Shown piece after piece: positions 1,328-63,005 of a stretch of DNA of 63,086 nucleotides. The notes under the pieces were generated by a model, which did not search any database, was not told the origin of the DNA, and saw only the letters and a list, made by a program, of their open reading frames with translations. The DNA is taken from contig CAZBFB010000046.1 in assembly GCA_964491085.1 (NCBI GenBank), forward strand, positions 1 to 63,086. The letters run 5' to 3'. This DNA comes from an uncultured Gammaproteobacteria bacterium (GTDB lineage Bacteria; Patescibacteriota; Patescibacteriia; CAZBFB01). The position numbers and the translations under genes are program-made. The first letter of the stretch is position 1. Every line of letters starts with the position of its first letter.

Positions 1328-2347
1328 ATGATTCTTGTTTCCGGATCTTTGGCGTATGATTTGATCATGGATTTCCCGGGGAAGTTTTCGGATCATATTA
1401 TGCCGGATAAAATTCACGCGTTGAACGTGAGTTTTTTTTTGGGCAGTCGTAGCCAAGAATTTGGCGGTACTGCTGGGAATATCGCGTATAATTTGGCGCT
1501 TTTAGGACTACAGCCGACAATTCTGGCATCGGTCGGAAATGATTTTGCCAAATACCGCGCGTGGCTGGAACAACACAACCTAGATTTGTCCCAGATAAAA
1601 ATAGTTGCCGAAGAACCCACCGCCGTAGCGCACATCATGACCGATCAGGCGGACAATCAAATCACCGGCTTTTATCCGGGCGCGATGTTGCAATCAGCCG
1701 CAACAAAACTCATCCCCCACCTTAATCCTCCCCCTTCTGCTGAAGAGGGAGGAAACAGAATTAATTTTCCTCCCTCTTGTACTCAAGGGGGAGGCCAGGT
1801 GGGGGATTTTGCTATCGTCTCTCCCGGTAACTTGGACGACATGCGGGCGTTGCCGAAATGGTATGCTGAAAAAAACATCCCCTATATTTACGATCCGGGG
1901 CAAGCAATTACCGGCTTGTCAGGGGAGGATTTGCAAGCGGGAATCAACGGCGCGAAATTTCTAATTTGCAATGATTACGAAGCCAGTTTGATTACCCACA
2001 AGACCGGATTGAAGCTTGAACATATCTTTGCTAAACTGTCTGCGATTATTATTACTCTAGGCGCTCTAGGTTCACGCTTGATTACCGTCTCGGGTGAAAT
2101 TTTAATCGCCCCGGCAAAGCCGAGTCAACTCGTTGATCCCACCGGCGCGGGTGATGCGTTCCGTGCGGGATTCATCCACGGTGTTTTACAAGGATGGTCA
2201 CTAAGTGATGCCTGTCGGTTAGGCGCAACCGTGGCGGTGTACACGGTAGAAAAACATGGCACACAAACGCACACTTTTACGCTTTCAGAATTACAAACAC
2301 GATATGAATTGAACTACGGTGTGAGAGTGGTGTCGGTGTTACTTTAA
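1328..2347 (+). CDS. PfkB-family carbohydrate/nucleoside kinase (adenosine-kinase-like) carrying an in-frame repeat insertion
   Basis: DPTGAGDAFRAGF signature near the C-terminus and an N-terminal GG motif region. Residues IPHLNPPPSAEEGGNRINFPPSCTQGGGQVGD are encoded by a repeat. Confidence 0.8.
   Translation: MILVSGSLAYDLIMDFPGKFSDHIMPDKIHALNVSFFLGSRSQEFGGTAGNIAYNLALLGLQPTILASVGNDFAKYRAWLEQHNLDLSQIKIVAEEPTAVAHIMTDQADNQITGFYPGAMLQSAATKLIPHLNPPPSAEEGGNRINFPPSCTQGGGQVGDFAIVSPGNLDDMRALPKWYAEKNIPYIYDPGQAITGLSGEDLQAGINGAKFLICNDYEASLITHKTGLKLEHIFAKLSAIIITLGALGSRLITVSGEILIAPAKPSQLVDPTGAGDAFRAGFIHGVLQGWSLSDACRLGATVAVYTVEKHGTQTHTFTLSELQTRYELNYGVRVVSVLL
1712..1807. repeat. Family-B palindromic repeat, head-to-head dimer (96 bp), inside the kinase CDS
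   Basis: atcccccacct..cctccccctt..aagagggaggaaa / spacer / ttttcctccctctt..aagggggagg..aggtgggggat. The length is 32 codons with no stop in the gene frame. Confidence 0.9.
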
Positions 2348-5153: not shown

Positions 5154-5263
5154 AAATCAGTAAATCCGGTAAATTAAGTAAATCCAGTGGCGGAAGGTTT
5201 GAAAAAAAACGATTGAGTATTTTAGAGGCTTGGTGTAAACCCGACTGTCATTTATATTTAATA

Positions 5264-5305
5264 TTTTCCTCCTCTTCAGCAGAAGGGGAGGGTTAGGGAG
5301 GGGAT
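5264..5305 (+). repeat. Family-B palindromic repeat, short form
   Basis: ttttcctcctcttcagcagaaggggagggttagggaggggat. Confidence 0.8.
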
Positions 5306-5318
5306 TGTGTTTGCAAAA

Positions 5319-5446
5319 ATCCCCCACCTAACCGTTCCGGGGCTTCGCGGTCTGCGACATCACCAAGCCCGTCTCGCGGTTCGCAGGCAAAGCAGTTTGC
5401 CTGCTTTCCACCGCTCGACCCCCTTGACTACAAGAGGGAGGAAAAA
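5319..5446 (-). repeat. Family-B repeat, long form, with an 86-nt internal core
   Basis: Its reverse complement matches 62816..62940. The internal core is identical by eye; only the B-type arms differ at a few positions. Confidence 0.9.
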
Positions 5447-5453
5447 TTATAAC
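5424..5453 (+). promoter_or_regulatory. Putative promoter whose -35 (TTGACT) lies in the repeat terminus; -10 TATAAC
   Basis: TTGACT 5424-5429, 18-nt spacer, TATAAC 5448-5453; the ATG at 5471 is downstream. Confidence 0.4.
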
Positions 5454-36896: not shown

Positions 36897-39518
36897 ATGC
36901 GATTTCCCAATAAACTTTTTCGATCAGAATGGATGGTGCTGTGTATAGCGGTGGCGCTATTTGTGGTACCATTTTTTTGGTTCAAGAATGGAGAGGCCGA
37001 TTTCGGCGGGGATGCGAGCCGCTTATATTTTTATGATGCACTAAATTCATTGCGCAATGTTGGCGCGCACACAGTCGCGACCTTTGATGTGCCGAGTATC
37101 CACATGTTACCGTTTTTTGCGCTACTGGCATTATTGCAAGTGGTGTTCAGGAACCCCTCCGTGTTGCTATCTCTCGTGAATGGGTGGCTCTTCTCTTTTT
37201 CTTTTTTATCTGTGTATTTGGTGCTTCGGGTATTACAAGAAGAAGACGATTGTTCAGAAGGTGATGCGGGTTCTATTTTAGGTGGCTTATTTTACGCCTT
37301 ATCAGGAATTTTTGTATATAGCTGGCAACGCTATCTGCAAAGTTTTCATGCGATTGTGGTATATCCTTTTGTCATTTGGCTCTTTCTTTTGTTTTTGAAA
37401 TCGGGCAGGAAACGATATCTGCTTTATGCGATTCTTTTGACGGTTCCTTTTGCGCACCTTTTTTCATGGTCTAACTCTCCCGGATTTTTTTCGTTTTTTC
37501 CACTCGCGAGCATTGTCCTTGTTTGGTACGCGTGGCGTAGAAGTAAAGTAGTATTGTTGCTTAAGGGCATGGCGTTCCTGATGATACTAACATCACTGAT
37601 TCAAGCATTTCATTTGCTGCCGCAGGTCGCGAATATTATGCAACCATCAAGTGGAGTACGACAGCTAATATTTAGTGATGCTGGGAAATTAGAGCGCGGA
37701 TTAAATTATTTTACCGCAAACGCACCCTATGTGCGCCTGGTATACAACTTGCTCGGATTCCCTCAATATTATTTGTATCAAACAATAGGAGCACCTCCTG
37801 CGATTGTGGACGCTATTGAGCATTACAGTATTCGTTACATTGGCTTATTTTTTATGATTCCTTTGACCGTATGCCTGGCCAGTATGGTTGTCTTTATACG
37901 GAGGCGTCAAGGGATCAAGGATAGTCGGCACGCTGTGTTTATAGGTTGGTTATCTATTTTTTTGATAATGACGTTTTTTATGACAGCCAATTTATTTGGC
38001 AGCTGGGGACCATCCTTCTATCGTAGTTTATTCTGGATTCCCGGTTTTTCCATGTTCAGAAGTTTTTATGGCGCGTTTTCTAATGCGTTTATATTTTTTT
38101 ACGCGCTCTTGTTTGGATTTAGCTGTGCTATTGTATTTCGCGAACTACGGAGCCGCGTGATTCTGTACGGATATATCTTACTTTTGGTGGTTCCTTTATT
38201 TTATGGAGCGTTCCCTTTGTTTGCCGGAAAAGTGGCCAATATAGAATTAGACGGGGCAGTGCATATGAAAGCTTCCCTCAAACTTAAGCCGGCGTATGGC
38301 CAAGTATTACAGTGGCTACGCGAGACCCCACTAGATACCACGCTTCTGCTGTTGCCGTTGGTTAATTTTGATTATCAGGTAATTGAAGGAGAACGGGGTG
38401 GAGCGTATGTGGGAGCGCCATCTATTCCGTTTTTAACGGGAAGATCAACCTATGCCGGGCTTGGTACATTTGAATTTAATAAGAGTAAAGTGGCTTCGTA
38501 TAATGCCATTGCGCAGAAAATAGAACAGCGGGACTATCGTTCGTTGCAGAGGTTGTTTTCTTTTCTTCATATCGGGTTTATTTTTCATAATGCCAGTCCG
38601 GAGGTGTATGATAATTTTTTTGGATTTCCTTATTCACCAGTTCTGAAAAAATTGTTTCCCACGGCCGCGGATGTGCAGACCTTTGTGAATGCCCTAGGAT
38701 ATACTAAAGTGTTTTCTGCAGGACCGTATTCAATTTTTTATGATGCAGAATTGTTTGTTCCCCAGTTGTTTATTCCTCGCACTATCATAAAAGTTAGTGC
38801 ACCGGAAGAAATCGCGACGGTCATTAGTTCCCAGGATTCGTATGATCCGGCCACCGCATTTTATCAAACCGGCGGTAGTCCGGCCAAGCAAATTGATGTT
38901 ATACCCGGCGGCGTTTTTAATGGACCAGCGCTTGAGTTCAAGAAAATAACTAGCACAAAATATAGAATTAGGGCACACAAAATGACATCTAGTTTTCCTT
39001 TGGTATTCGGCGATTATTTTAATGATGGCTGGCGGCTTTATCCGCAGACAGTAAAGCGGCCATCATGTCAGCTATTTAATAAAAATGACATTACTTTTTT
39101 TGGCGTCTCCAATGAAGAGGAGAATATCTGGTGTCACGAAGGAATTATCAGTACTAGCGGCCAAGCATTCATTTCACAGCCATACGCTGGCTCGATTCAA
39201 AACCAAAACTTGCCGGCCGGAACGATTTTTGAAACTTGGTTCCAACGTCCGCTGTCCGCTTCAGCACACCTTAAGGTAAATGACTACGCCAACTCTTGGT
39301 GGGTTGATCTGGAACAATTGAGGAGAGATTTTCCTGACCGGGTGTGGCAAAATATCAATGGGAGTTATGAGGTTGAGTTTATTTTAGAATTTATTCCGCA
39401 ACGATATTTTTATATAGGAACCGCTGTTTCCCTGCTGACATTTTTTGGGATTGTCGGATATAGCATTAGTGTGTGGGTGAGAAGGAAACGCTTACCGTAT
39501 GAAACGAATCACAAATAA
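36897..39518 (+). CDS. Large polytopic membrane protein, putative GT-C-fold glycosyltransferase (AftD/DUF3367-like), paralog A
   Basis: 873 aa. A roughly 470-aa multi-TM N-domain carries FFWFKNGEADFGGDASRLYFYD and PGFSMFRSFYG motifs. A roughly 370-aa non-hydrophobic domain and a C-terminal TM anchor follow. The family call is from memory and needs an HMM search. Confidence 0.5.
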   Translation: MRFPNKLFRSEWMVLCIAVALFVVPFFWFKNGEADFGGDASRLYFYDALNSLRNVGAHTVATFDVPSIHMLPFFALLALLQVVFRNPSVLLSLVNGWLFSFSFLSVYLVLRVLQEEDDCSEGDAGSILGGLFYALSGIFVYSWQRYLQSFHAIVVYPFVIWLFLLFLKSGRKRYLLYAILLTVPFAHLFSWSNSPGFFSFFPLASIVLVWYAWRRSKVVLLLKGMAFLMILTSLIQAFHLLPQVANIMQPSSGVRQLIFSDAGKLERGLNYFTANAPYVRLVYNLLGFPQYYLYQTIGAPPAIVDAIEHYSIRYIGLFFMIPLTVCLASMVVFIRRRQGIKDSRHAVFIGWLSIFLIMTFFMTANLFGSWGPSFYRSLFWIPGFSMFRSFYGAFSNAFIFFYALLFGFSCAIVFRELRSRVILYGYILLLVVPLFYGAFPLFAGKVANIELDGAVHMKASLKLKPAYGQVLQWLRETPLDTTLLLLPLVNFDYQVIEGERGGAYVGAPSIPFLTGRSTYAGLGTFEFNKSKVASYNAIAQKIEQRDYRSLQRLFSFLHIGFIFHNASPEVYDNFFGFPYSPVLKKLFPTAADVQTFVNALGYTKVFSAGPYSIFYDAELFVPQLFIPRTIIKVSAPEEIATVISSQDSYDPATAFYQTGGSPAKQIDVIPGGVFNGPALEFKKITSTKYRIRAHKMTSSFPLVFGDYFNDGWRLYPQTVKRPSCQLFNKNDITFFGVSNEEENIWCHEGIISTSGQAFISQPYAGSIQNQNLPAGTIFETWFQRPLSASAHLKVNDYANSWWVDLEQLRRDFPDRVWQNINGSYEVEFILEFIPQRYFYIGTAVSLLTFFGIVGYSISVWVRRKRLPYETNHK

Positions 39519-42447
39519 AATTTTACAGGCAAGCGGAATAATTCGCGTTTTTTTCGCTAATTATATCGGTCGTCTTTTAGTACTCGTGGCAGCCGTACTT
39601 ATTGGTAGGCACATTTTTTTGTTTGACATTTACGAAACGACTCTTTTGTTATTGTTAATGGGGAGTACGTTGGCGATAGTGCATCCTGCCCTGATCGCTT
39701 TTTGCGCAATAGTGATGTTTATCAGCGCGCCATTTTATCATTTGCAAGGAAATATTAATGCGGCCGAGCACGCGGTGGTGTATGGCTATTATTTATTATG
39801 GTTGCTGGTGGCACATCAGGCCGGTTTCTGGCTTTGGGAGCGTAGTATAATGATTCGTCGGATGGGAGCAGTGATGCGCAGTCGCGAGCAATCGATCTAT
39901 TATTTTTTTAGGCGACTCGGTCGGCGGGCTGCGGAAATTACGGTTAAATTTAGCGTCGCCGCGCTACGCCGGGTAGTGCATTTTATATGGCGCAATAAGG
40001 CAGAGCTCGCACTGGCGATTGTATTATTTTTTATTCCGTTTTTTTGGTTTCAAAATGGAGAAGCTGATTTTGGCGGCGACTCGTCGCGGTTATATTTTTA
40101 TGACCCGTTGAATTGGTTGAAATCAATGGGGCTGTATGAAATCAACGCCAGCGGTTTTGACAATCCGAATTTTTTTATTATCCCGTTTCTGCTGTTGTTG
40201 CAAGGCCTGAAGTGGCTTTTTAGGAACAACGCATCAACCATGCTGGCGGTGTTTAATGGCATGTTGTTAAGCGGAGCGTTCTTGTCAGTCTATGGCACCG
40301 TACGGGTGTTTCTTTCCCATCGTGAAGATAAGCGTTATGTTCGCGCGGCCGCGATCATGGGCGCGCTCTTTTTTGTTTTGTCACAGAGCATAATGTATGG
40401 TTGGCAAAAATCTCTTTATACATTCCACCAGATAGCGGTCTATCCCTTGGTGGTGTTGCTGTGGTTAGCGTATATTCGTTCTCGCCGGTTTTTTTATATC
40501 TTAGTATCTCTTTTAGTAACCTTCGTATTTTCGGTTAATTTTAGTCTTTACTCGGCACCTTCTTTTTTTAGTTTTTTTATGTTTGCGTTTCCGTTGGTTT
40601 CTTTGTATGCCGTTTTTGTAAAACGGAAGAAGGTATGGACGCAAGGGTTTGTATTGTTCCTTGTTTTGTTTCTGTTACTGCACGCCTTCCAGCTTTTTCC
40701 TCAACTCGTGTCAATCTCGAATCCCGCAAGTAACATTTACGAAAATTTATTTACCAAACACGGCCAACTTGATCGGGGTTTGAATTATTTTCACGGAGTG
40801 CGCTCCATGGTACGGCTTATTTATAATATAGTTGGGTTTACGCAGTATTATCTGTATACGCAAACCGTATCTTCTCTGCCGTTATTGAAAATGTTGTTTA
40901 CCTTCGGCGTGCAGGTATTATATCTATTTCTTATATTCCCGATCATAATCGTCGGTGGATTTATGATAAGTTTAAAAGAACGCGTCCGGGTAATGCGGCT
41001 CGTTTTACTCACCTTGATGTCCCTCCTTTTGATAAGCCTATTCTTCATGACGGCTAATATATTCGGGATTTGGGGACCAAAAATGTATGCAGCGCTTTTT
41101 TCTGTCCCTGGATTTTCTATGTTTAGGAGTTTTTATGGTGTCTTTGCTATTGTCTCCGTCTATATACTAGCTCTGACTTTTGGTGTGGCCAGTCACTATG
41201 TTTTGGTCTTTTTGCCGCACCGTGTTATGCGCGCCATTTTTATCGGCGGGCTTCTCGTACTGCTTGGTTATAATGGCATTCCTTTTTTTCAGGGAAGTAT
41301 TGTGAATGTTGTTATGTCCGATACCAAAGGAGTGAAACTTTCCAATCATTTTAGGTCATCACTGGATGAGATGCTGATCCATGTCAGAAATGATACGCTT
41401 GATGCTCGAATAGTAACGTTACCCCTAACAAATTTTGGTTATCAGATCATTGATGGTGAATTTGGAGGTGCCTATGTCGGCCCTTCTCCTTTGGGAATGC
41501 TCGCCGGGCGGCAGGTTTTTAGCGGATTGGCCTCATTTGATTATCCGCCAAGCTCTGTATTTTCTCAAGAATTTATTCTAGATCGCCTGCGAGTGAAGGA
41601 TTATCGTACCCTTAATCGTTTGTTTTCGCTCCTCAACGTGGGCTATATATTTTATAATTCAAATCCCGATATATACCTTGATAAATTCATCGGCTGGCCC
41701 TACTCAAAAGCAGTGTGGGATGCCTTTCCTCTGTTTGCTGATTTCGATGGCTTTATAAAGCGTTTGGGCTACACCCCTATTTACAGTGCGGATACCTATA
41801 TATTGTACAATAACCAGGCCTATTTTTTGCCGCATATTTATATTCCTCTCCGCATAAAAAAAGTTGACAACGAAGGTCAAATGAAAGATAACTTGATCAA
41901 TGATTCGGGCTATGAATTACAAACAGTGTTTTATGTAACGGGTACCGCCGCTGACTCATTGATCGCAAAATTTTCCGATGGGCTGGCGCATCCTCCGATA
42001 CTTGAGATAAAAAAAATTAACACCACAAAATATCGTTTACTGATTAGTAATATTACTGCGAATTTTCCGCTCATTTTCAGTGAGCCGTTCCACCCTGGTT
42101 GGCGGCTGGCTTTGGAGTCGGTAGCCGGCGCGTCAGGGACTGATGGTATAACTGCTTCTAGACAAATAGGGCTCCTCGATGAAAAAAATCACACGCGGGC
42201 AAACCAATACGCCAATGGTTGGTGGATTGATCTCAATTATATACGCGATCATTACGGGCAAGCGCTTAAACAAAACGTAGATGGTAGTTATACTATGAAC
42301 GCAACCCTTATTTTTGCTCCCCAAGAAAATTTTTATACCGGAGCCGCGATTTCTTTACTAGCTCTTATTATTATCGTGCTTCTTACTATTGTGCTCGGCG
42401 TCGTGTATGGTATCCAGGCGCGGGGTAGAGTAGCGCAGGGAAAATAA
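39499..42447 (+). CDS. Large polytopic membrane protein, putative GT-C-fold glycosyltransferase, paralog B, with an extra roughly 165-aa N-terminal membrane module
   Basis: 982 aa, collinear with paralog A: FFWFQNGEADFGGDSSRLYFYD, PGFSMFRSFYG, LPLTNFGYQIIDGEFGGAYVG, NQYANGWWIDL. Confidence 0.5.
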   Translation: MKRITNKILQASGIIRVFFANYIGRLLVLVAAVLIGRHIFLFDIYETTLLLLLMGSTLAIVHPALIAFCAIVMFISAPFYHLQGNINAAEHAVVYGYYLLWLLVAHQAGFWLWERSIMIRRMGAVMRSREQSIYYFFRRLGRRAAEITVKFSVAALRRVVHFIWRNKAELALAIVLFFIPFFWFQNGEADFGGDSSRLYFYDPLNWLKSMGLYEINASGFDNPNFFIIPFLLLLQGLKWLFRNNASTMLAVFNGMLLSGAFLSVYGTVRVFLSHREDKRYVRAAAIMGALFFVLSQSIMYGWQKSLYTFHQIAVYPLVVLLWLAYIRSRRFFYILVSLLVTFVFSVNFSLYSAPSFFSFFMFAFPLVSLYAVFVKRKKVWTQGFVLFLVLFLLLHAFQLFPQLVSISNPASNIYENLFTKHGQLDRGLNYFHGVRSMVRLIYNIVGFTQYYLYTQTVSSLPLLKMLFTFGVQVLYLFLIFPIIIVGGFMISLKERVRVMRLVLLTLMSLLLISLFFMTANIFGIWGPKMYAALFSVPGFSMFRSFYGVFAIVSVYILALTFGVASHYVLVFLPHRVMRAIFIGGLLVLLGYNGIPFFQGSIVNVVMSDTKGVKLSNHFRSSLDEMLIHVRNDTLDARIVTLPLTNFGYQIIDGEFGGAYVGPSPLGMLAGRQVFSGLASFDYPPSSVFSQEFILDRLRVKDYRTLNRLFSLLNVGYIFYNSNPDIYLDKFIGWPYSKAVWDAFPLFADFDGFIKRLGYTPIYSADTYILYNNQAYFLPHIYIPLRIKKVDNEGQMKDNLINDSGYELQTVFYVTGTAADSLIAKFSDGLAHPPILEIKKINTTKYRLLISNITANFPLIFSEPFHPGWRLALESVAGASGTDGITASRQIGLLDEKNHTRANQYANGWWIDLNYIRDHYGQALKQNVDGSYTMNATLIFAPQENFYTGAAISLLALIIIVLLTIVLGVVYGIQARGRVAQGK

Positions 42448-46111: not shown

Positions 46112-46142
46112 CTGGATTCCGGATCAAGTCCGGAATGACAAA
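46112..46142 (-). repeat. Family-A hairpin repeat (tgtcattcc-stem-loop-stem-ggaatccag)
   Basis: ctggattccggatcaagtccggaatgacaa, 10 nt before the sufB start. Confidence 0.85.
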
Positions 46143-47558: not shown

Positions 47559-48202
47559 ATGCTCATCTCGGCTCACGAACACAAAATAATTATCCAACCC
47601 CAAGCCCTTGATGGTGAAATTGTGCTTGAAGCGGAGGCGGATCTCATGTATCTTTTTTTATCGGTGAAAATACGCCGGCTGACGCTTCACTGATTTGTCG
47701 GTTGAACGGTCGGGGTGCGCGGGCAAATATTTTTGGATTTGATTTGCGTGCCCAGGGAAGCCATCGTTTGAGTCTGCGCTTAGAGTATGGTGCGGAACAA
47801 ACCTGGGGTCATGTATGGCTCACGTCAGTGTTGAGCGGTTCGGCAAAAAGCAAAGTTGATGCCATGCTTAAGATGGAGCAAACCGCCACCGGCGCGGATG
47901 GTTATTTTGCGCATCATACCTTATTGATTCCGACAAATGAACAAGCTAAACCATCGAGTCATACCCGTCCGGCGTTGGAAATTTTAGCGCACGACATTCG
48001 CGCCGGGCATGCCGCCACTACCAGCTCCCTTGATCCGGCTATGCTACTCTATCTGGGCACGCGCGGCATTGCTTCGGTCAGCGCGCGCCGGTTGTTGGTG
48101 GAAGGATTTGTGGCTCGTGCCATCACCCGTATTCCCGATCCGACCGCCCGCCAAGCGTGTGAAAAAATAGTCGGTGAGACATTAATGTCATTCTGGACTT
48201 GA
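47559..48202 (+). CDS. sufD: SufD-like protein, reading frame interrupted (apparent -1 shift at a T7 run, 47653-47659)
   Basis: The ATG 47559 frame stops at 47691-47693. The frame carrying the SufD C-terminal homology (ALEILAHDIRAGHAATTSSLDPAMLLYLGTRGI) is open from 47630. The two overlap around ttttttt. Confidence 0.65.
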
Positions 48203-48265
48203 TCCAGAATCCAGTAAGTACGTTTAATTTAAAAAATTGGATTCCAGCTTTCGCTGGAATGACAA
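48186..48265. repeat. Pair of inverted family-A hairpin repeats forming an 80-bp MITE-like unit
   Basis: tgtcattctggacttgatccagaatccag ... ttggattccagctttcgctggaatgacaa. The left copy contains the sufD stop codon. Confidence 0.85.
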
Positions 48266-49498: not shown

Positions 49499-49715
49499 TG
49501 TCATTCCGGACTCGATCCGGAATCCAGACCCCCCAGCTTAATAATTTCCACTACCCAATTTCCAACAAAATGTCCAATGCTTAATGCCAAATTTCATTTT
49601 GTAATTATCTGCCTGAGGCGGATCCGCCGCGGGCGGAGAAATTTCATTGGAAATTGGATATTGGAAATTAAACCCGTGGATTAATCTGGATCCCAAATCT
49701 AGTTTGGGATGACAA
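49499..49715. repeat. Nested composite: inverted family-A hairpins (49499-49527, 49686-49715) enclosing a family-C element (49543-49669)
   Basis: tgtcattccggactcgatccggaatccag ... [aatttcca...ccaatttcc... gcctgaggcggatccgccgcgggcggag ...ggaaattgg...ggaaatt] ... ctggatcccaaatctagtttgggatgacaa. Confidence 0.8.
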
Positions 49716-51673: not shown

Positions 51674-51711
51674 GTCTGCGATCGTCAGCGTCAAGTCCGC
51701 GTTAGTCCGCG
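51674..51711 (+). repeat. Family-E repeat (gtcagcg/gtccgcg units with roughly 11-nt periodicity)
   Basis: tctgcgatcgtcagcgtcaagtccgcgttagtccgcg, related to 53917-54000, 60601-60636 and 62699-62736. Confidence 0.65.
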
Positions 51712-53141: not shown

Positions 53142-53151
53142 GTTTATTTAT

Positions 53152-53194
53152 TTTTTCTCCCTCTTGTAATCAAGGGCGAGGTGAGATGGGGGAT
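53152..53194 (+). repeat. Family-B palindromic repeat, short form
   Basis: tttttctccctcttgtaatcaagggcgaggtgagatgggggat, directly upstream of leuS. Confidence 0.8.
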
Positions 53195-53208
53195 AGTTAA
53201 AGTTGAGT

Positions 53209-55644
53209 ATGAAATCATATAACCACAAAACAATCGAACCAAAATGGCAAAAACGCTGGGACGAAGCGCAGATTTTTGCCGCTAAAAATTTTGATTCACG
53301 GCCTAAATTTTATGGCTTGATCGAATTTCCGTATCCGTCCGGCGAAGGACTGCATGTGGGGCATCCGCGTTCCTATACAGCCATGGATATTATCGCACGC
53401 CAGCGCCGTATGGCCGGAAATAATGTTTTATATCCAATCGGTTTTGACTCATTCGGCTTGCCCACCGAAAACTATGCCATAAAAACCGGTCGTCCGCCGG
53501 CCGAGATTACGCGAGAGAATATTGCTAACTTTACGCGCCAGTTGAAAAGTATCGGATTTAGTTTTGATTGGTCGCGGGTAGTAATTACGAGTGAGCCAGA
53601 ATATTACCAGTGGACCCAATGGATTTTTTTGCAGTTGTTCAAGCATGGTTTGGCGTATAAAAAGAAACAACCGATTAACTGGTGCTCGTCTTGTAAGATT
53701 GGCTTGGCGAACGAAGAGGTGGTTGATGGTAAATGCGAGCGTTGCGGTACACCGGTGGAACAACGCAATAAAGAACAATGGATGTTGGCAATTACCAAAT
53801 ATGCTGATAAATTATTGGCTGGTTTGGATACGGTTGATTATATTGAGCGCGCCAAAGTCCAGCAACAGAATTGGATCGGCCGAAGCGAAGGCGCGGAAAT
53901 TGAATTTTTGCTTATCGCTCGCGGACCAACGCGGACTGGTACGCGGACCAACGCAGACCAATTTCTGCGTAAGTCAGCGTCAAGTCAGCGTGAGTCTGCG
54001 ACTTTGACTTCAGTCAAAGTATTCACGACGCGACCGGATACATTGTTTGGCGTGACGTATTTGGTATTGGCGCCGGAACATGAATTGATTGCACAACTAC
54101 AAGCGCAAATTTCAAACTGGCCGGAAGTTCAAAACTATATTGAGCAAGTAACAAAGAAATCCGAGCAAGAACGCATGGCCGAAGATCGGCAAAAAACCGG
54201 TATGGAATTAAAAGGAATTATGGCTATCAATCCGGCCAATAACGAAGAAATTCCGGTGTGGGTCGCTGATTATGTATTGGCCAGTTATGGGACCGGCGCG
54301 ATTATGGCCGTACCGCAACATGATGCCCGCGATCGCGAATTCGCGGAAAAATTTAATTTACCGATTGTTGACCGACCGTTAGTTTCGAGTGATGAGATTA
54401 TTCATAAAGTCGGCGGCACAAAAACCGTTAAGTATAAACTTCGCGACTGGGTTTTTTCGCGCCAGCGCTATTGGGGCGAGCCGATTCCGCTGGTTTTTTG
54501 TGAGAGCTGTAAAGATTGGATTCCTTTGCCGGAGGATCAATTGCCGTTGGTATTGCCGGCGGTGGAAAAATATCAGCCCACGGATACGGGTGAATCACCG
54601 TTGGCGGCTATGACGGATTGGGTGAACACAACCTGTCCTCGTTGTAACGGGCCAGCCCGACGCGAAACCGACACCATGCCTAACTGGGCGGGTTCAAGTT
54701 GGTATTACCTTGCATACACCATGCAAGGAATTTCCAATTTCCCCGCTTCGACTCGTCGAAGGCGAGGCGAGCAATTTCCAATTTCTAACTATAAGGAAAT
54801 ATTTAAGTATTGGCTGCCCGTTGATTGGTACAACGGTGGTATGGAGCACACGACGTTGCATTTACTGTATTCTCGTTTTTGGAATGAGTTTTTGTTTGAC
54901 ATCGGCGTAGTGCCGGTATTCGAGCCGTACGCCAAGCGTACTTCGCACGGTATGATTTTGGCGGAGAATGGTGAAAAAATGTCCAAGTCGCGAGGCAATG
55001 TGGTAAATCCTGACACGGTGGTCAAAGAGTTGGGTGCGGACACTTTGCGCGTCTATGAAATGTTTATGGGTCCGTTTGCCGATGCCGTTCCGTGGAGCAC
55101 CAAAGGCATAATTGGCTTGCGCCGCTTTTTGGAACGCGTCTGGCGATTGGGTGCTGTTGTCATTCCCGCGGAGGCGGGAATCCAGGCGGATGATTTTTTG
55201 TTGCATCAAACCATAAAAAAAGTCAGCGCGGATATCGAGGCCATGAAATTCAACACAGCGATTTCCCAGATGATGATTTTGGTGAATGCCTGGACGAAAG
55301 ACGGCGTGTCGTCACGCCCTGCCTGGCTTGATTTTTTAAAATTATTAGCCCCGTTCGCGCCGCACCTGGCGGAAGAATTATGGGAACAAGCCGGTGAGAC
55401 GGGATTTATTTCGCTGGCCGCATGGCCAAAGTATGATCCGGCCAGAATTATCACGGAAACGGTTACGCTCGTGGTGCAGGTGAACGGTAAAGTCAGAGCC
55501 ACCATCATCGTACCGACCGATGTCCCGGAAACGGAATTGATCGCCCGCGCCCGCGCCGAAAAAAATGTTCAGCAGTGGTTGGCAGAACTTGAGCCAAAGA
55601 AAACCGTCGTGATCAAAGGCCGCCTGATAAATTTTGTCGTTTAA
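53209..55644 (+). CDS. leuS: Leucyl-tRNA synthetase (with three in-frame repeat-derived segments)
   Basis: KWQKRW, PYPSGEGLHVGH (HIGH), VFTTRPDTLFGVTY, and KMSKSRGN (KMSKS). The start is taken at ATG 53209. Confidence 0.95.
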   Translation: MKSYNHKTIEPKWQKRWDEAQIFAAKNFDSRPKFYGLIEFPYPSGEGLHVGHPRSYTAMDIIARQRRMAGNNVLYPIGFDSFGLPTENYAIKTGRPPAEITRENIANFTRQLKSIGFSFDWSRVVITSEPEYYQWTQWIFLQLFKHGLAYKKKQPINWCSSCKIGLANEEVVDGKCERCGTPVEQRNKEQWMLAITKYADKLLAGLDTVDYIERAKVQQQNWIGRSEGAEIEFLLIARGPTRTGTRTNADQFLRKSASSQRESATLTSVKVFTTRPDTLFGVTYLVLAPEHELIAQLQAQISNWPEVQNYIEQVTKKSEQERMAEDRQKTGMELKGIMAINPANNEEIPVWVADYVLASYGTGAIMAVPQHDARDREFAEKFNLPIVDRPLVSSDEIIHKVGGTKTVKYKLRDWVFSRQRYWGEPIPLVFCESCKDWIPLPEDQLPLVLPAVEKYQPTDTGESPLAAMTDWVNTTCPRCNGPARRETDTMPNWAGSSWYYLAYTMQGISNFPASTRRRRGEQFPISNYKEIFKYWLPVDWYNGGMEHTTLHLLYSRFWNEFLFDIGVVPVFEPYAKRTSHGMILAENGEKMSKSRGNVVNPDTVVKELGADTLRVYEMFMGPFADAVPWSTKGIIGLRRFLERVWRLGAVVIPAEAGIQADDFLLHQTIKKVSADIEAMKFNTAISQMMILVNAWTKDGVSSRPAWLDFLKLLAPFAPHLAEELWEQAGETGFISLAAWPKYDPARIITETVTLVVQVNGKVRATIIVPTDVPETELIARARAEKNVQQWLAELEPKKTVVIKGRLINFVV
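53917..54000. repeat. Family-E palindromic dimer (84 bp, 28 codons) inside leuS
   Basis: It encodes ARGPTRTGTRTNADQFLRKSASSQRESA between GAEIEF and VFTTRPDT. The same units occur in intergenic DNA. Confidence 0.75.
54729..54785. repeat. Family-C-related element (57 bp, 19 codons) inside leuS
   Basis: aatttccaatttc direct termini flank the palindrome cgcttcgactcgtcgaaggcg. It shares aatttcca/ccaatttcc with 49543-49669. Confidence 0.65.
55158..55185 (+). repeat. Family-A hairpin repeat inside leuS (encodes VIPAEAGIQ)
   Basis: tgtcattcccgcggaggcgggaatccag. It has the same termini as the intergenic copies at 46.1, 48.2 and 49.5 kb. Confidence 0.85.
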
Positions 55645-55683: not shown

Positions 55684-56571
55684 ATGAATTTACGAAACGA
55701 TATCCAATCGCGTGCCCGAATTGCCGGCTTGACCCCTAATAAACTAAAAGGTCAGCATTTTTTGGTTGACGAACGAATACGAGACCGGGTATTAGCGGCC
55801 GCCATCCCCCACCTAACCTCCCCCTTGAGTACAAGAGGGAGGAAAGAATTAATTTTTCCTCCCTCTTCTCGAGAAGGGGGAGGCCAGGTGGGGGATGTCC
55901 TCGAAATCGGTCCCGGGCTTGGCGTTTTGACGGATGAATTAGTAAAACACGCTCGGCAGGTTGACGCCGTCGATATTGACGAGCAGGAAGTCATGTTTTT
56001 GCGCAAGCGTTATGTTGATAACAAAAATATCACCATTCATCATCAAGACGCCCTCGACTATGCGCCACTCGCCACCGGCTATTCGCTCATATCCAATTTG
56101 CCATACGAAATCACCACGCCGTTTTTGTGGCGCTATCTTTTGGAACTGCCGCTCAATCAGCGCCCGCAACAATTAGTGCTTCTGATTCAAAAAGAAGTGG
56201 CTGATCGCATACTGCAGAACAAGCCGCCGTTTAATCCGTTGGCGTTATTGGTACAATGGTTCGGCGAGGCCAAGCGCGTAATGAATGTTTCGCGTCACGC
56301 CTTTTGGCCCGAGCCGCGCGTTGAGGGAGCGGTGATAAAAATTACTCGTCAGGCCGATCTGGCGGATCCGGGCAAACTATTTGCATTAATCCGCGCCGGT
56401 TTTTCTCACCCCCGCCGTCAACTGGCAGTCAACCTCCGCGCCGCCGGCTACGCTCCCGCTGATATTACCCCTGCCCTCACCAACATCAACCTTCCCACTC
56501 TCGTCCGCGCCGAAGCGCTCGATCTGCCCGCCTGGCAGGCGTTTTCCCACAGTTTACCCGGACGCTCTTGA
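55684..56571 (+). CDS. rsmA: 16S rRNA (adenine1518/1519-N6)-dimethyltransferase RsmA/KsgA carrying an in-frame repeat insertion
   Basis: KGQHFLVD, VLEIGPGLGVLT (SAM motif I), ISNLPYEITTP. 31 extra residues lie between the first two motifs. Confidence 0.88.
   Translation: MNLRNDIQSRARIAGLTPNKLKGQHFLVDERIRDRVLAAAIPHLTSPLSTRGRKELIFPPSSREGGGQVGDVLEIGPGLGVLTDELVKHARQVDAVDIDEQEVMFLRKRYVDNKNITIHHQDALDYAPLATGYSLISNLPYEITTPFLWRYLLELPLNQRPQQLVLLIQKEVADRILQNKPPFNPLALLVQWFGEAKRVMNVSRHAFWPEPRVEGAVIKITRQADLADPGKLFALIRAGFSHPRRQLAVNLRAAGYAPADITPALTNINLPTLVRAEALDLPAWQAFSHSLPGRS
55804..55896. repeat. Family-B palindromic repeat, head-to-head dimer (93 bp) inside rsmA
   Basis: atcccccacctaacctcccccttgagtacaagagggaggaaa / gaattaa / tttttcctccctcttctcgagaagggggaggccaggtgggggat. 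The length is 31 codons. Confidence 0.9.
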
Positions 56572-60478: not shown

Positions 60479-60533
60479 CGTAATCCGTCCGCCTCGGATC
60501 GACCGAGTCGAGACGGGTAACTCGTAACTGGTA
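60479..60533 (+). repeat. Family-F repeat, copy 1
   Basis: cgtaatccgtccgcctcggatcgaccgagtcgagacgggtaa (42 nt) is the perfect reverse complement of 62964..63005. Confidence 0.9.
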
Positions 60534-60550
60534 CAATAGCAACATTCATT

Positions 60551-60596
60551 TTTTCCTCCCTCTTCACCAGAAGGGGGAGGATTTAAGGTGGGGGAT
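60551..60596 (+). repeat. Family-B palindromic repeat, short form
   Basis: ttttcctccctcttcaccagaagggggaggatttaaggtgggggat. Confidence 0.85.
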
Positions 60597-60600
60597 TTTT

Positions 60601-60636
60601 CTGCGACAGTCGGCGTTAAGTCGGCATCAGTCCGCG
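60601..60636 (+). repeat. Family-E repeat, followed by the small hairpin cccacccca-gt-ggggtggg (60637-60655)
   Basis: ctgcgacagtcggcgttaagtcggcatcagtccgcg. It is roughly 80% similar to the reverse complement of 62699-62736. Confidence 0.6.
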
Positions 60637-60657
60637 CCCACCCCAGTGGGGTGGGAC

Positions 60658-62683: not shown

Positions 62684-62698
62684 TGCGCGAAGCGCATT

Positions 62699-62736
62699 CG
62701 CTGACTAACGCTGACTTTACGCAGACGGTCGCGGAC
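62699..62736 (-). repeat. Family-E repeat, preceded by the hairpin aatgcgc-gaa-gcgcatt at the groEL stop
   Basis: cgctgactaacgctgactttacgcagacggtcgcggac. Confidence 0.6.
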
Positions 62737-62754
62737 AAATATTCCGAACCAAAC

Positions 62755-62786
62755 AAAAAAAGAGCCCGGGGTCGGGCTCTTTTTTG
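62755..62786. terminator. Rho-independent (bidirectional-type) terminator of groESL
   Basis: aaaaaa-agagcccg-gggt-cgggctct-tttttg. The 8-bp GC-rich stem is flanked by A and T runs. Confidence 0.8.
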
Positions 62787-62815
62787 TTATTCTTCGAGTA
62801 GTGTTGAGAAATTTG

Positions 62816-62940
62816 TTTCCTCCCTCTTGTAATCAGGGGGTCGAGCGGTGGAAAGCAGGCAAACTGCTTTGCCTGCGAACCGCGAGACGGGCTTGGTGAT
62901 GTCGCAGACCGCGAAGCCCCGGGACGGTGAGGTGGGGGAC
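62816..62940 (+). repeat. Family-B repeat, long form, with an 86-nt core (mate of 5319..5446)
   Basis: tttcctccctcttgtaatcaggggg-[core]-gtgaggtgggggac. The core is the reverse complement of 5334-5419. Confidence 0.9.
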
Positions 62941-62943
62941 AAT

Positions 62944-63005
62944 TACGAGTTACCAGTTACAGTTTACCCGTCTCGACTCGGTCGATCCGAGGCGGACGGA
63001 TTACG
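62944..63005 (-). repeat. Family-F repeat, copy 2 (inverted relative to 60479..60533)
   Basis: The last 42 nt (62964-63005) are the perfect reverse complement of 60479-60520. Confidence 0.9.

Follow-up and report, generated by a model that had tools for sequence, protein, structure and literature searches.

The window analyzed here is a 63,086-nucleotide (nt) stretch of DNA (contig CAZBFB010000046.1, positions 1 to 63,086) in which a palindromic repeat lies in frame within two protein-coding genes. The repeat unit (~42 nt) consists of an 11-nt box, ATCCCCCACCT, followed by a spacer of 1 to 5 nt, a hairpin, and an A-rich tail; the hairpin, CCTCCCCCTT-N6-AAGAGGGAGG, has a 10-bp stem with one C.A mismatch and a 6-nt loop. 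The first host gene is an open reading frame (ORF) on the forward strand (1328..2347) that encodes a 339-amino-acid (aa) PfkB-family carbohydrate/adenosine kinase (Pfam PF00294, E = 6e-43). The original prediction, made from the letters of the window, had placed a 96-nt, 32-codon repeat dimer in this gene at 1712-1807, and its sequence, its translation, and the Pfam match of its host confirmed this. Using box searches, repeat comparison, folding, and nhmmer, we resolved the insert as an inverted (box-outward) dimer without strand, composed of a forward unit (1712-1755), a center (1756-1765), and a reverse unit (1766-1807), with the units matching the family profile at nhmmer E values of 4e-15 and 4e-12. 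The dimer sequence runs from atcccccacct to aggtgggggat and translates in the frame of the ORF to IPHLNPPPSAEEGGNRINFPPSCTQGGGQVGD, corresponding to residues 129 to 160 of the protein; as RNA, it forms a long hairpin (-64.2 kcal/mol, z = -8.0). The 120 PfkB homologs listed, which are from Patescibacteria and share at most 56% identity with the window protein, are mostly 308 to 326 aa long versus 339 aa here, and those that were aligned have only a short variable loop in place of the 32-residue block. In an AlphaFold (AF2) model based on a 61-sequence alignment (mean predicted local distance difference test [pLDDT] score of 86.7), residues 132 to 160 are coil, with pLDDT values below 50 at residues 135 to 157, and are flanked by a helix (125 to 131) and a strand (161 to 164). 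The insert is predicted by this model to occupy a disordered surface loop, a position compatible with the host fold. No target-site duplication was found at the dimer, as its flanks (AAAACTC upstream and TTTGCTA downstream) contain no direct repeat. Three PfkB orthologs from other Patescibacteria (P0005, P0106, and P0065) have extra segments that coincide with inverted repeats of unrelated sequence (L051:1657-1724, L052:6406-6471, and L053:405-443 and 755-777), and two of these segments share the loop of the window insert. The hairpin insert of P0106 (locus L052) had no second copy within its 13-kb locus and, as a single copy there, cannot be called a repeat family.

The second host gene (55684..56571, forward strand) encodes the 295-aa 16S rRNA dimethyladenosine transferase RsmA/KsgA (Pfam PF00398, RrnaAD). 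Box searching, repeat comparison, profile matching, and folding delimited within it an inverted dimer of 93 nt, or 31 codons (55804..55896, likewise without strand), made up of a forward unit (55804-55845) and a reverse unit (55855-55896). This dimer reads IPHLTSPLSTRGRKELIFPPSSREGGGQVGD in the host frame and, as RNA, also forms a long hairpin (-67.7 kcal/mol, z = -9.3). The insert spans residues 41 to 71, immediately ahead of S-adenosylmethionine-binding motif I (VLEIGPG), and nearly all of the 150 best RsmA representatives align to the protein as two pieces, with the break at query residues 44 to 70. In an alignment of 13 RsmA orthologs, a 7-residue loop (e.g., GLRGGES) separates a conserved AA pair from VLEIGPG, at a place where the window protein has 31 residues, and the sequence of the Thermus thermophilus KsgA structure shows a likewise short loop. 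The net gain is 24 residues, not 31, and the native 7-residue loop seems to have been lost at the element site. There was no target-site duplication at this dimer either, its flanks (GGCCGCC and GTCCTCG) containing no direct repeat. A diverged inverted dimer of the same type is present in another RsmA ortholog (P0126; L054:440-525) at a different site, between the DAL motif and NLPY; it was located by a route other than the core-pattern survey described below, and its box lies in a minority register (GAT-GGG-GGA-T, termed R2 below). Hairpin-shaped inserts of other sequence were also seen in PfkB and RsmA orthologs of other Patescibacteria, in the same or in other loops.

The PfkB and RsmA dimers are identical over their first 11 and last 15 nucleotides, and both read IPHL...GGGQVGD. 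They also have in common the central spacer GAATTAATTTT and an unusual GG spacer in the 3' half, which indicates that the dimer was copied as a unit. Compensating indels distinguish the two (-2 nt in the first box-hairpin spacer and -1 nt net in the center), as a result of which both lengths remain multiples of three and the first hairpin is read in different frames, as NPPPSAEEGG in one dimer and as TSPLSTRGR in the other. The identical phase claimed for the two genes therefore holds for the IPHL start and the GQVGD end and is limited to the first 4 and last ~16 codons. Orientation does not add a second coincidence: the dimers are near-perfect long palindromes and align almost equally well either way (82 versus 84 identical positions), so their orientation relative to the host gene is undefined.

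Beyond the two genes, the box ATCCCCCACCT occurs eight times in the window with at most one mismatch, compared to 0.68 occurrences expected, and none of 100 shuffled sequences reached eight. Seven family sites were found, comprising the 2 genic dimers and 5 intergenic sites. Three of the intergenic sites are single units on the reverse strand, located between the stop of an M23 peptidase gene (53141) and the start of leuS (53203) (53148..53194, E = 7e-9), upstream of groES and adjoining two other repeat families (60547..60596, E = 4e-13), and, in degenerate form, downstream of an S-adenosylhomocysteine-hydrolase-like ORF (5259..5305, E = 4e-6). The remaining two are composite units in which an extra structured module of 85 nt lies between box and hairpin. 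One was identified by box search and repeat comparison (5319..5447, forward strand), and the second copy, downstream of groEL, was identified by box search, repeat comparison, and profile (62811..62940, reverse strand). The module is identical in both, and the composites share 98% identity over 105 nt (match at 62835-62939), indicating that the composite itself was copied. Across the family, a unit may stand alone, follow another in direct tandem, pair with another in inverted orientation, or form a composite that includes additional hairpin modules. These modules (24 to 85 nt, differing from one another) always lie at the box-hairpin junction, both in the window composites and at three other loci (L004:2542-2625, L038:11613-11671, and L046:4598-4660), which suggests that the junction is a module hotspot, through either modular design or nested insertion. 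Genic units match the family profile as well as non-genic units do.

The family is not confined to the window. It is present on about 40 Patescibacteria contigs from metagenomes or metagenome-assembled genomes (MAGs), including the Patescibacteria MAG JAHINX01, which has three copies. The exact hairpin core was found in 39 metagenome loci, in most of which the box lies 1 to 5 nt upstream. Loci for our survey were chosen by an exact 20-base core pattern and came from few metagenomes, yielding 16 to 17 gene-level events, and genic copies were counted as validated where the host ORF has a Pfam match. Validated in-frame hosts include three aminoacyl-tRNA synthetases (CysRS, L003; ThrRS, L021; GlyRS, L026), TsaE (L013), glycosyltransferases of families GT4 (two, L015), GT9 (two, L035), and GT2 (one, L031), a GNAT protein (L043), an O-antigen ligase (Wzy_C, L046), and a reverse transcriptase (RVT_1, L032); a further in-frame host, also at L046, is a 454-aa ORF without a Pfam match. 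The genic arrangements elsewhere comprise single units, direct tandems (L031 and L043), a box-inward pair (L003), and a composite (L046:4598-4660). Compared to solved homologs, GlyRS has a net gain of 10 aa for a 13-aa unit, and TsaE has a net gain of 12 aa for a 14-aa unit. In the reverse transcriptase gene (L032:1286-2410), the unit is followed by AGGGGAT, which resembles the remnant of a second, reverse box. No consistent conserved flank motif or target-site duplication was seen at the other genic copies. Viral contigs yielded no matches to the core and two chance matches to box plus stem, both without the hairpin. No Rfam family reached its gathering threshold, the only hits being generic miRNA-precursor hairpin models far below their gathering scores. 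A census of element peptides (register 0 and the other registers) against a collection of 5.8 billion proteins returned none at E values of ≤10 by a method that is too insensitive for this purpose, since a unit-level peptide match scored only ~20 bits in a local phmmer test, for an E value much greater than 1 at that database size.

To describe how the element is read, we defined its register on the box strand as R0 (ATC-CCC-CAC, or GTG-GGG-GAT on the other strand), R2 (A-TCC-CCC), or R1 (AT-CCC-CCA). R0 alone is its own mirror image; a palindromic dimer with a length divisible by three will therefore have either both ends in R0 or neither. Considered alone, the two window copies carry almost no weight, because a retained insert keeps the host frame and two such copies agree by chance one time in three; the proposal that their agreement pointed to selection or a frame-specific process rather than chance does not stand on the pair itself. 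It does gain support from the wider survey. Gene-level events in validated genes numbered 12 in R0, 4 in R2, and 0 in R1, and without the two window copies the distribution was still 10:4:0 (p = 0.002 against equal thirds by an exact multinomial test; p = 0.005 against the expectation from stop-free readings of non-genic units). These events involve different genes on at least 9 different contigs. The R2 copies are those in ThrRS, GT2, GT9, and the O-antigen ligase, and the diverged dimer in the L054 RsmA gene is a fifth. In the pool of non-genic units (about 23 to 25), 36 of 50 readings were stop-free in R0, 33 of 50 in R1, and 30 of 50 in R2, giving shares of 0.37, 0.33, and 0.30. Five ORFs read at their 3' ends into non-genic copies, four of them in R1, and none of the five is Pfam validated as a gene. 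The register preference is thus real, moderate, and non-exclusive. The phase-bias survey that the original prediction had called for, carried out on related contigs rather than the whole genome, bears out an excess of R0 but not an absolute preference, given that R2 copies exist; copies in all phases, together with ORFs disrupted as often as chance would have it, had been named as the outcome that would count against it, and two of the three registers occur, which neither amounts to that outcome nor cleanly excludes it.

The peptides encoded by genic copies offer a second line of evidence. In reverse genic units read in R0 with a 2-nt spacer, the spacer was GG or CG in four of four cases and AA in none, while AA made up six of the seven 2-nt spacers of non-genic units; AA would give TAG in that reading (Fisher p = 0.015). 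That stop-creating AA spacers are missing from genic copies indicates that these copies have been selected to stay open in the host frame, and it argues against ribosomal bypassing or excision. The hairpin readings of 21 genic units were Pro/Gly-rich in 13 (PPP..EGG in forward units and PPS..GGG in reverse units), S(S/P)L..RGR in 3, Leu-rich LPL..K(R/G)E in 2, and unclear in 3, and the 13:3:2 count differed from the pool expectation (p = 0.003). Because the forward and reverse Pro/Gly readings use different registers of the element strand, peptide type, and not DNA phase, is the common factor. The box of the two units at L031 lies in R2, yet a 2-nt spacer brings their hairpins into the PPP..EGG reading. 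Although the window is almost wholly coding, only about 40% of oriented copies are genic, which implies that most genic insertions are lost.

We consider it likely that the repeat is a non-autonomous, hairpin-forming element of Patescibacteria, resembling both the repetitive extragenic palindromes (REPs) with their paired form, the REPIN, and the Rickettsia palindromic elements (RPEs), and that its genic survivors have been filtered for an open frame and a tolerated loop peptide. Copies would have arisen by transposition-like spread, and in a gene-dense genome many insertions would land in genes. The persisting copies would be those whose length is a multiple of three, whose sequence leaves the host frame free of stops, and whose product is a flexible Pro/Gly-rich peptide located in a surface loop, with the dimers in PfkB and RsmA as two survivors of this kind. 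The phase shared by the two would then reflect the filter: a register 0 box gives I-P-H-L or x-V-G-D, and the usual hairpin reading in that register is PPP..EGG or PPS..GGG. We infer that the register skew most probably results from selection for a sequence that can be translated and whose Pro/Gly-rich peptide suits a loop, not from a strict frame-specific process. On this account, the two window dimers are translated as part of their proteins. Between the two causes that had been offered for the shared phase, selection for a translatable frame and frame-specific insertion, the evidence favors, without proving, the former, in the sense of selection for a translatable and tolerated product.

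Several observations weigh against this account. Stop codons had to be rejected as the cause of the register skew, since the three registers are stop-free about equally often in non-genic units, and neither Kyte-Doolittle hydropathy nor polar fraction clearly separated the registers. The skew in peptide type is not significant at the level of gene events without the window copies (7:2:2, p = 0.13). The commonest reverse Pro/Gly reading of the pool (R1, ..GGGLRWG, 12 of 23 units) never occurs in genes, which implies that the box reading itself (IPHL or xVGD versus RWG or PPP) matters. Judging from the alignments, the RsmA event is not a clean insertion, its net gain being 24 and not 31 residues. 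A scan of 20 window ORFs, which did not extend to ~35 ORFs of the sugar/polysaccharide region, revealed no transposase domain, and a target-site duplication is missing from both genic dimers. Finally, the sample is small (16 to 17 events) and was drawn by an exact-match core pattern from few metagenomes.

A different way to account for the skew is that phase is set at insertion, by a phase-aware or target-coupled process that aligns the element ends with codon boundaries, possibly by exchanging a loop-coding segment through microhomology to, or recombination with, native codons of the form ATC-CCN or GGN-GAT. This would explain a register skew that stop codons do not, including the absence of AT-CCC-CCA from 16 events although it is stop-free in 33 of 50 pool readings, and it fits the RsmA gene, where the element sits in the position of a native loop of 7 residues (a 31-aa element for a net +24 aa) and where the codons at its two ends line up with residues native to T. 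thermophilus KsgA (IPH with RPF and GD with TG). Likewise, the solved GlyRS homolog has ..P-NAKGGV-D.. where the element reads PPSFAKGGGAVGD. We nevertheless judge such a process unlikely, given that at least five validated copies lie in another register (ThrRS, GT2, GT9, Wzy, and the L054 RsmA), that forward and reverse hairpins differ in DNA register yet give one peptide type, that there is no conserved flanking motif or target-site duplication, and that the net gains of TsaE (+12 of 14 aa) and GlyRS (+10 of 13 aa) are nearly full length. To our knowledge, moreover, no DNA transposition mechanism senses the reading frame. In one form of this idea, codon-aligned insertion would have the C-rich and G-rich terminal boxes drive recombination or repair that replaces a loop segment and thereby imposes the 12:4:0 distribution. 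We regard this version as improbable; if true, the repeat would be dedicated to generating loop insertions, specific to the lineage, in proteins of Patescibacteria.

It is also rather improbable that the shared phase and the survey skew are products of chance or ascertainment, for example through descent from one coding-competent subfamily. Two frame-keeping copies do agree in register with a probability of 1/3, the PfkB and RsmA dimers are evidently copies of one master dimer (shared GAATTAATTTT and GG spacer), and the survey drew its loci from a handful of metagenomes through an exact 20-base core, but the skew persists without the discovery pair (10:4:0, p = 0.002 to 0.005) and its events are spread over different genes and no fewer than 9 contigs. 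Very unlikely, in our estimation, is a functional module, for example an mRNA hairpin that slows translation or makes the transcript more stable, or a peptide that plays a part in the protein, that would fix the phase. Hairpin stability is extreme (-64 and -68 kcal/mol), the coding copies keep the hairpins intact, and genic units score equal to non-genic ones against the family profile; against this, the same sequence lies between genes in either orientation and recurs in a dozen proteins of unrelated function, disorder is predicted for the peptide, no Rfam family was found at threshold, and the apparent conservation is partly circular, as loci were selected for an intact core. We give almost no credence to the idea that the element is not translated at all, being skipped by the ribosome (through bypassing of the type known from T4 gene 60 and mitochondrial "byps") or removed by RNA-level excision. 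Mitochondrial byps are GC-rich hairpin elements that are bypassed in translation, and a stable hairpin within a coding region does resemble known bypass elements. A skipped sequence, however, would need neither an open frame, nor a length that is a multiple of three, nor stop-free spacers, and here all genic copies are stop-free in the host frame, the window inserts are kept at multiples of three (96 and 93 nt) through compensating indels, and the stop-creating spacer variants are specifically missing from genic copies.

Other repeats of the window also enter genes. A second family (TCTGCG..GTCAGCGTCAAGTC..) lies in frame in the leucyl-tRNA synthetase (LeuRS) gene (53920-54001 in the leuS ORF, 53203..55644), where it reads ..LRKSASSQRESA..; its other copies (51675-51711, 60600-60636, and 62698-62735) are all intergenic. 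The LeuRS of T. thermophilus lacks an equivalent of residues 237 to 270 of the window protein. A third family, GTCATTCC-(hairpin)-GGAATCCAG, flanks sufB, sufD, and sufS (46112-46139, 48187-48214, and 49500-49527), and a variant of it lies in frame in LeuRS at 55150-55176, reading VIPAEAGIQ. The ORF that follows sufB (47702..48202) has a repeat copy at its 3' end; its match to the SufBD core domain is confined to the C-terminal half (profile positions 101 to 232), and judging from this partial match, sufD may be a truncated gene or have a misplaced start. On either side of the groES-groEL operon lie repeat clusters drawn from three families (60479-60640 and 62698-63005), the outermost pair of which (60479-60533 and 62951-63005; 55 nt) is 95% complementary. 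Elsewhere in the window, two adjacent large paralogous ORFs (36897..39518, 873 aa, and 39499..42447, 982 aa) contain segments with 74 to 79% nucleotide identity at a constant offset of 3,067 to 3,070 nt.

Palindromic repeats that encode protein segments are usually seen as a peculiarity of Rickettsia, and the family described here represents an independent case in the candidate phyla radiation (CPR), where it invades essential genes (aminoacyl-tRNA synthetases, RsmA, and TsaE). The presence of at least two further families in frame in LeuRS, together with the hairpin inserts in orthologs, suggests an origin for some of the lineage-specific insertions of CPR proteins. The many independent insertions of a single short sequence, with varied frames and spacers, constitute a natural data set on the peptides that are tolerated in loops, and one favored box register alongside another that is absent, and not forbidden by stops, poses a small and testable puzzle.

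In a literature search, we found no such elements described for Patescibacteria or CPR. The family was compared to known systems in other organisms. RPEs (RPE-1 to RPE-10) occur as in-frame fusions within numerous conserved genes, where they specify a conserved peptide (PMC10969869, PMC2229807, PMC3767692); for their features, we relied on reviews summarizing Ogata et al. (2000, 2002). Both are dispersed palindromic repeats that form long hairpins and occur in a small, gene-dense genome, intergenically as well as in frame within unrelated conserved genes. RPE peptides are thought to lie at fold-compatible positions, as is predicted here from the loop placement, and the hosts of the Patescibacteria element include aminoacyl-tRNA synthetases and RNA-modification enzymes. 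The element is set apart from RPE-1 to RPE-10, by description, in that its host belongs to the Patescibacteria, going by the named homologs and the related MAG, and not to Rickettsia or Wolbachia; it is shorter (a 42-nt unit and dimers of 93 to 96 nt versus 105 to 150 bp); it is modular, with box, spacer, and hairpin combined into singles, tandems, inverted pairs, and forms with extra modules; and the variable length of its spacer makes the internal frame differ between copies.

The family also resembles REPs, bacterial interspersed mosaic elements, and REPINs in being a short imperfect palindrome (20 to 40 nt) that carries a conserved end tag and often joins an inverted partner in a larger hairpin. 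Single and dimeric REPs within genes (GTAG and CGTC tagged) specify 20 to 30 aa, and their hosts are often housekeeping genes (Di Nocera et al. 2013, PMC3733652); genic in-frame singles and dimers are likewise found here. The tag of the Patescibacteria element, however, is the 11-nt C-rich ATCCCCCACCT in all oriented copies, not GTAG or CGTC, and the genic share of about 40% of oriented copies in our sample is high, whereas REPs are mostly extragenic. REP doublets are mobilized by REP-associated tyrosine transposases (RAYTs), and no RAYT/Y1 transposase domain was present among the 20 window ORFs scanned. Bacterial transposable elements of the miniature inverted-repeat type (MITEs), such as Correia/NEMIS, ERIC, RUP, and Nezha, are occasionally fused in frame to host ORFs (PMC3184786, PMC10969869). 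Like these, the family is small and non-coding and forms a long RNA stem-loop, and its dimers have terminal inverted repeats in the form of perfect 11-nt boxes at the ends of ~42-nt arms; unlike these, it shows no target-site duplication at genic dimers, and its functional unit appears to be the half-element, which is also found alone. The repetitive hairpin-forming elements of sponge mitochondria and the GC clusters of yeast are G+C-rich, palindromic mobile hairpins of compact genomes (PMC2800124). These, too, invade coding regions, but they often break the frame and are bypassed or tolerated, whereas every genic copy of the Patescibacteria element is open and in frame, and the window inserts (96 and 93 nt) have neither the untranslated gap nor the stops of a bypass element, being stop-free in the host frame. 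On the basis of these comparisons, the repeat falls into a known kind of element, similar to RPEs or to intragenic REPs, as a new family that is a member of neither.

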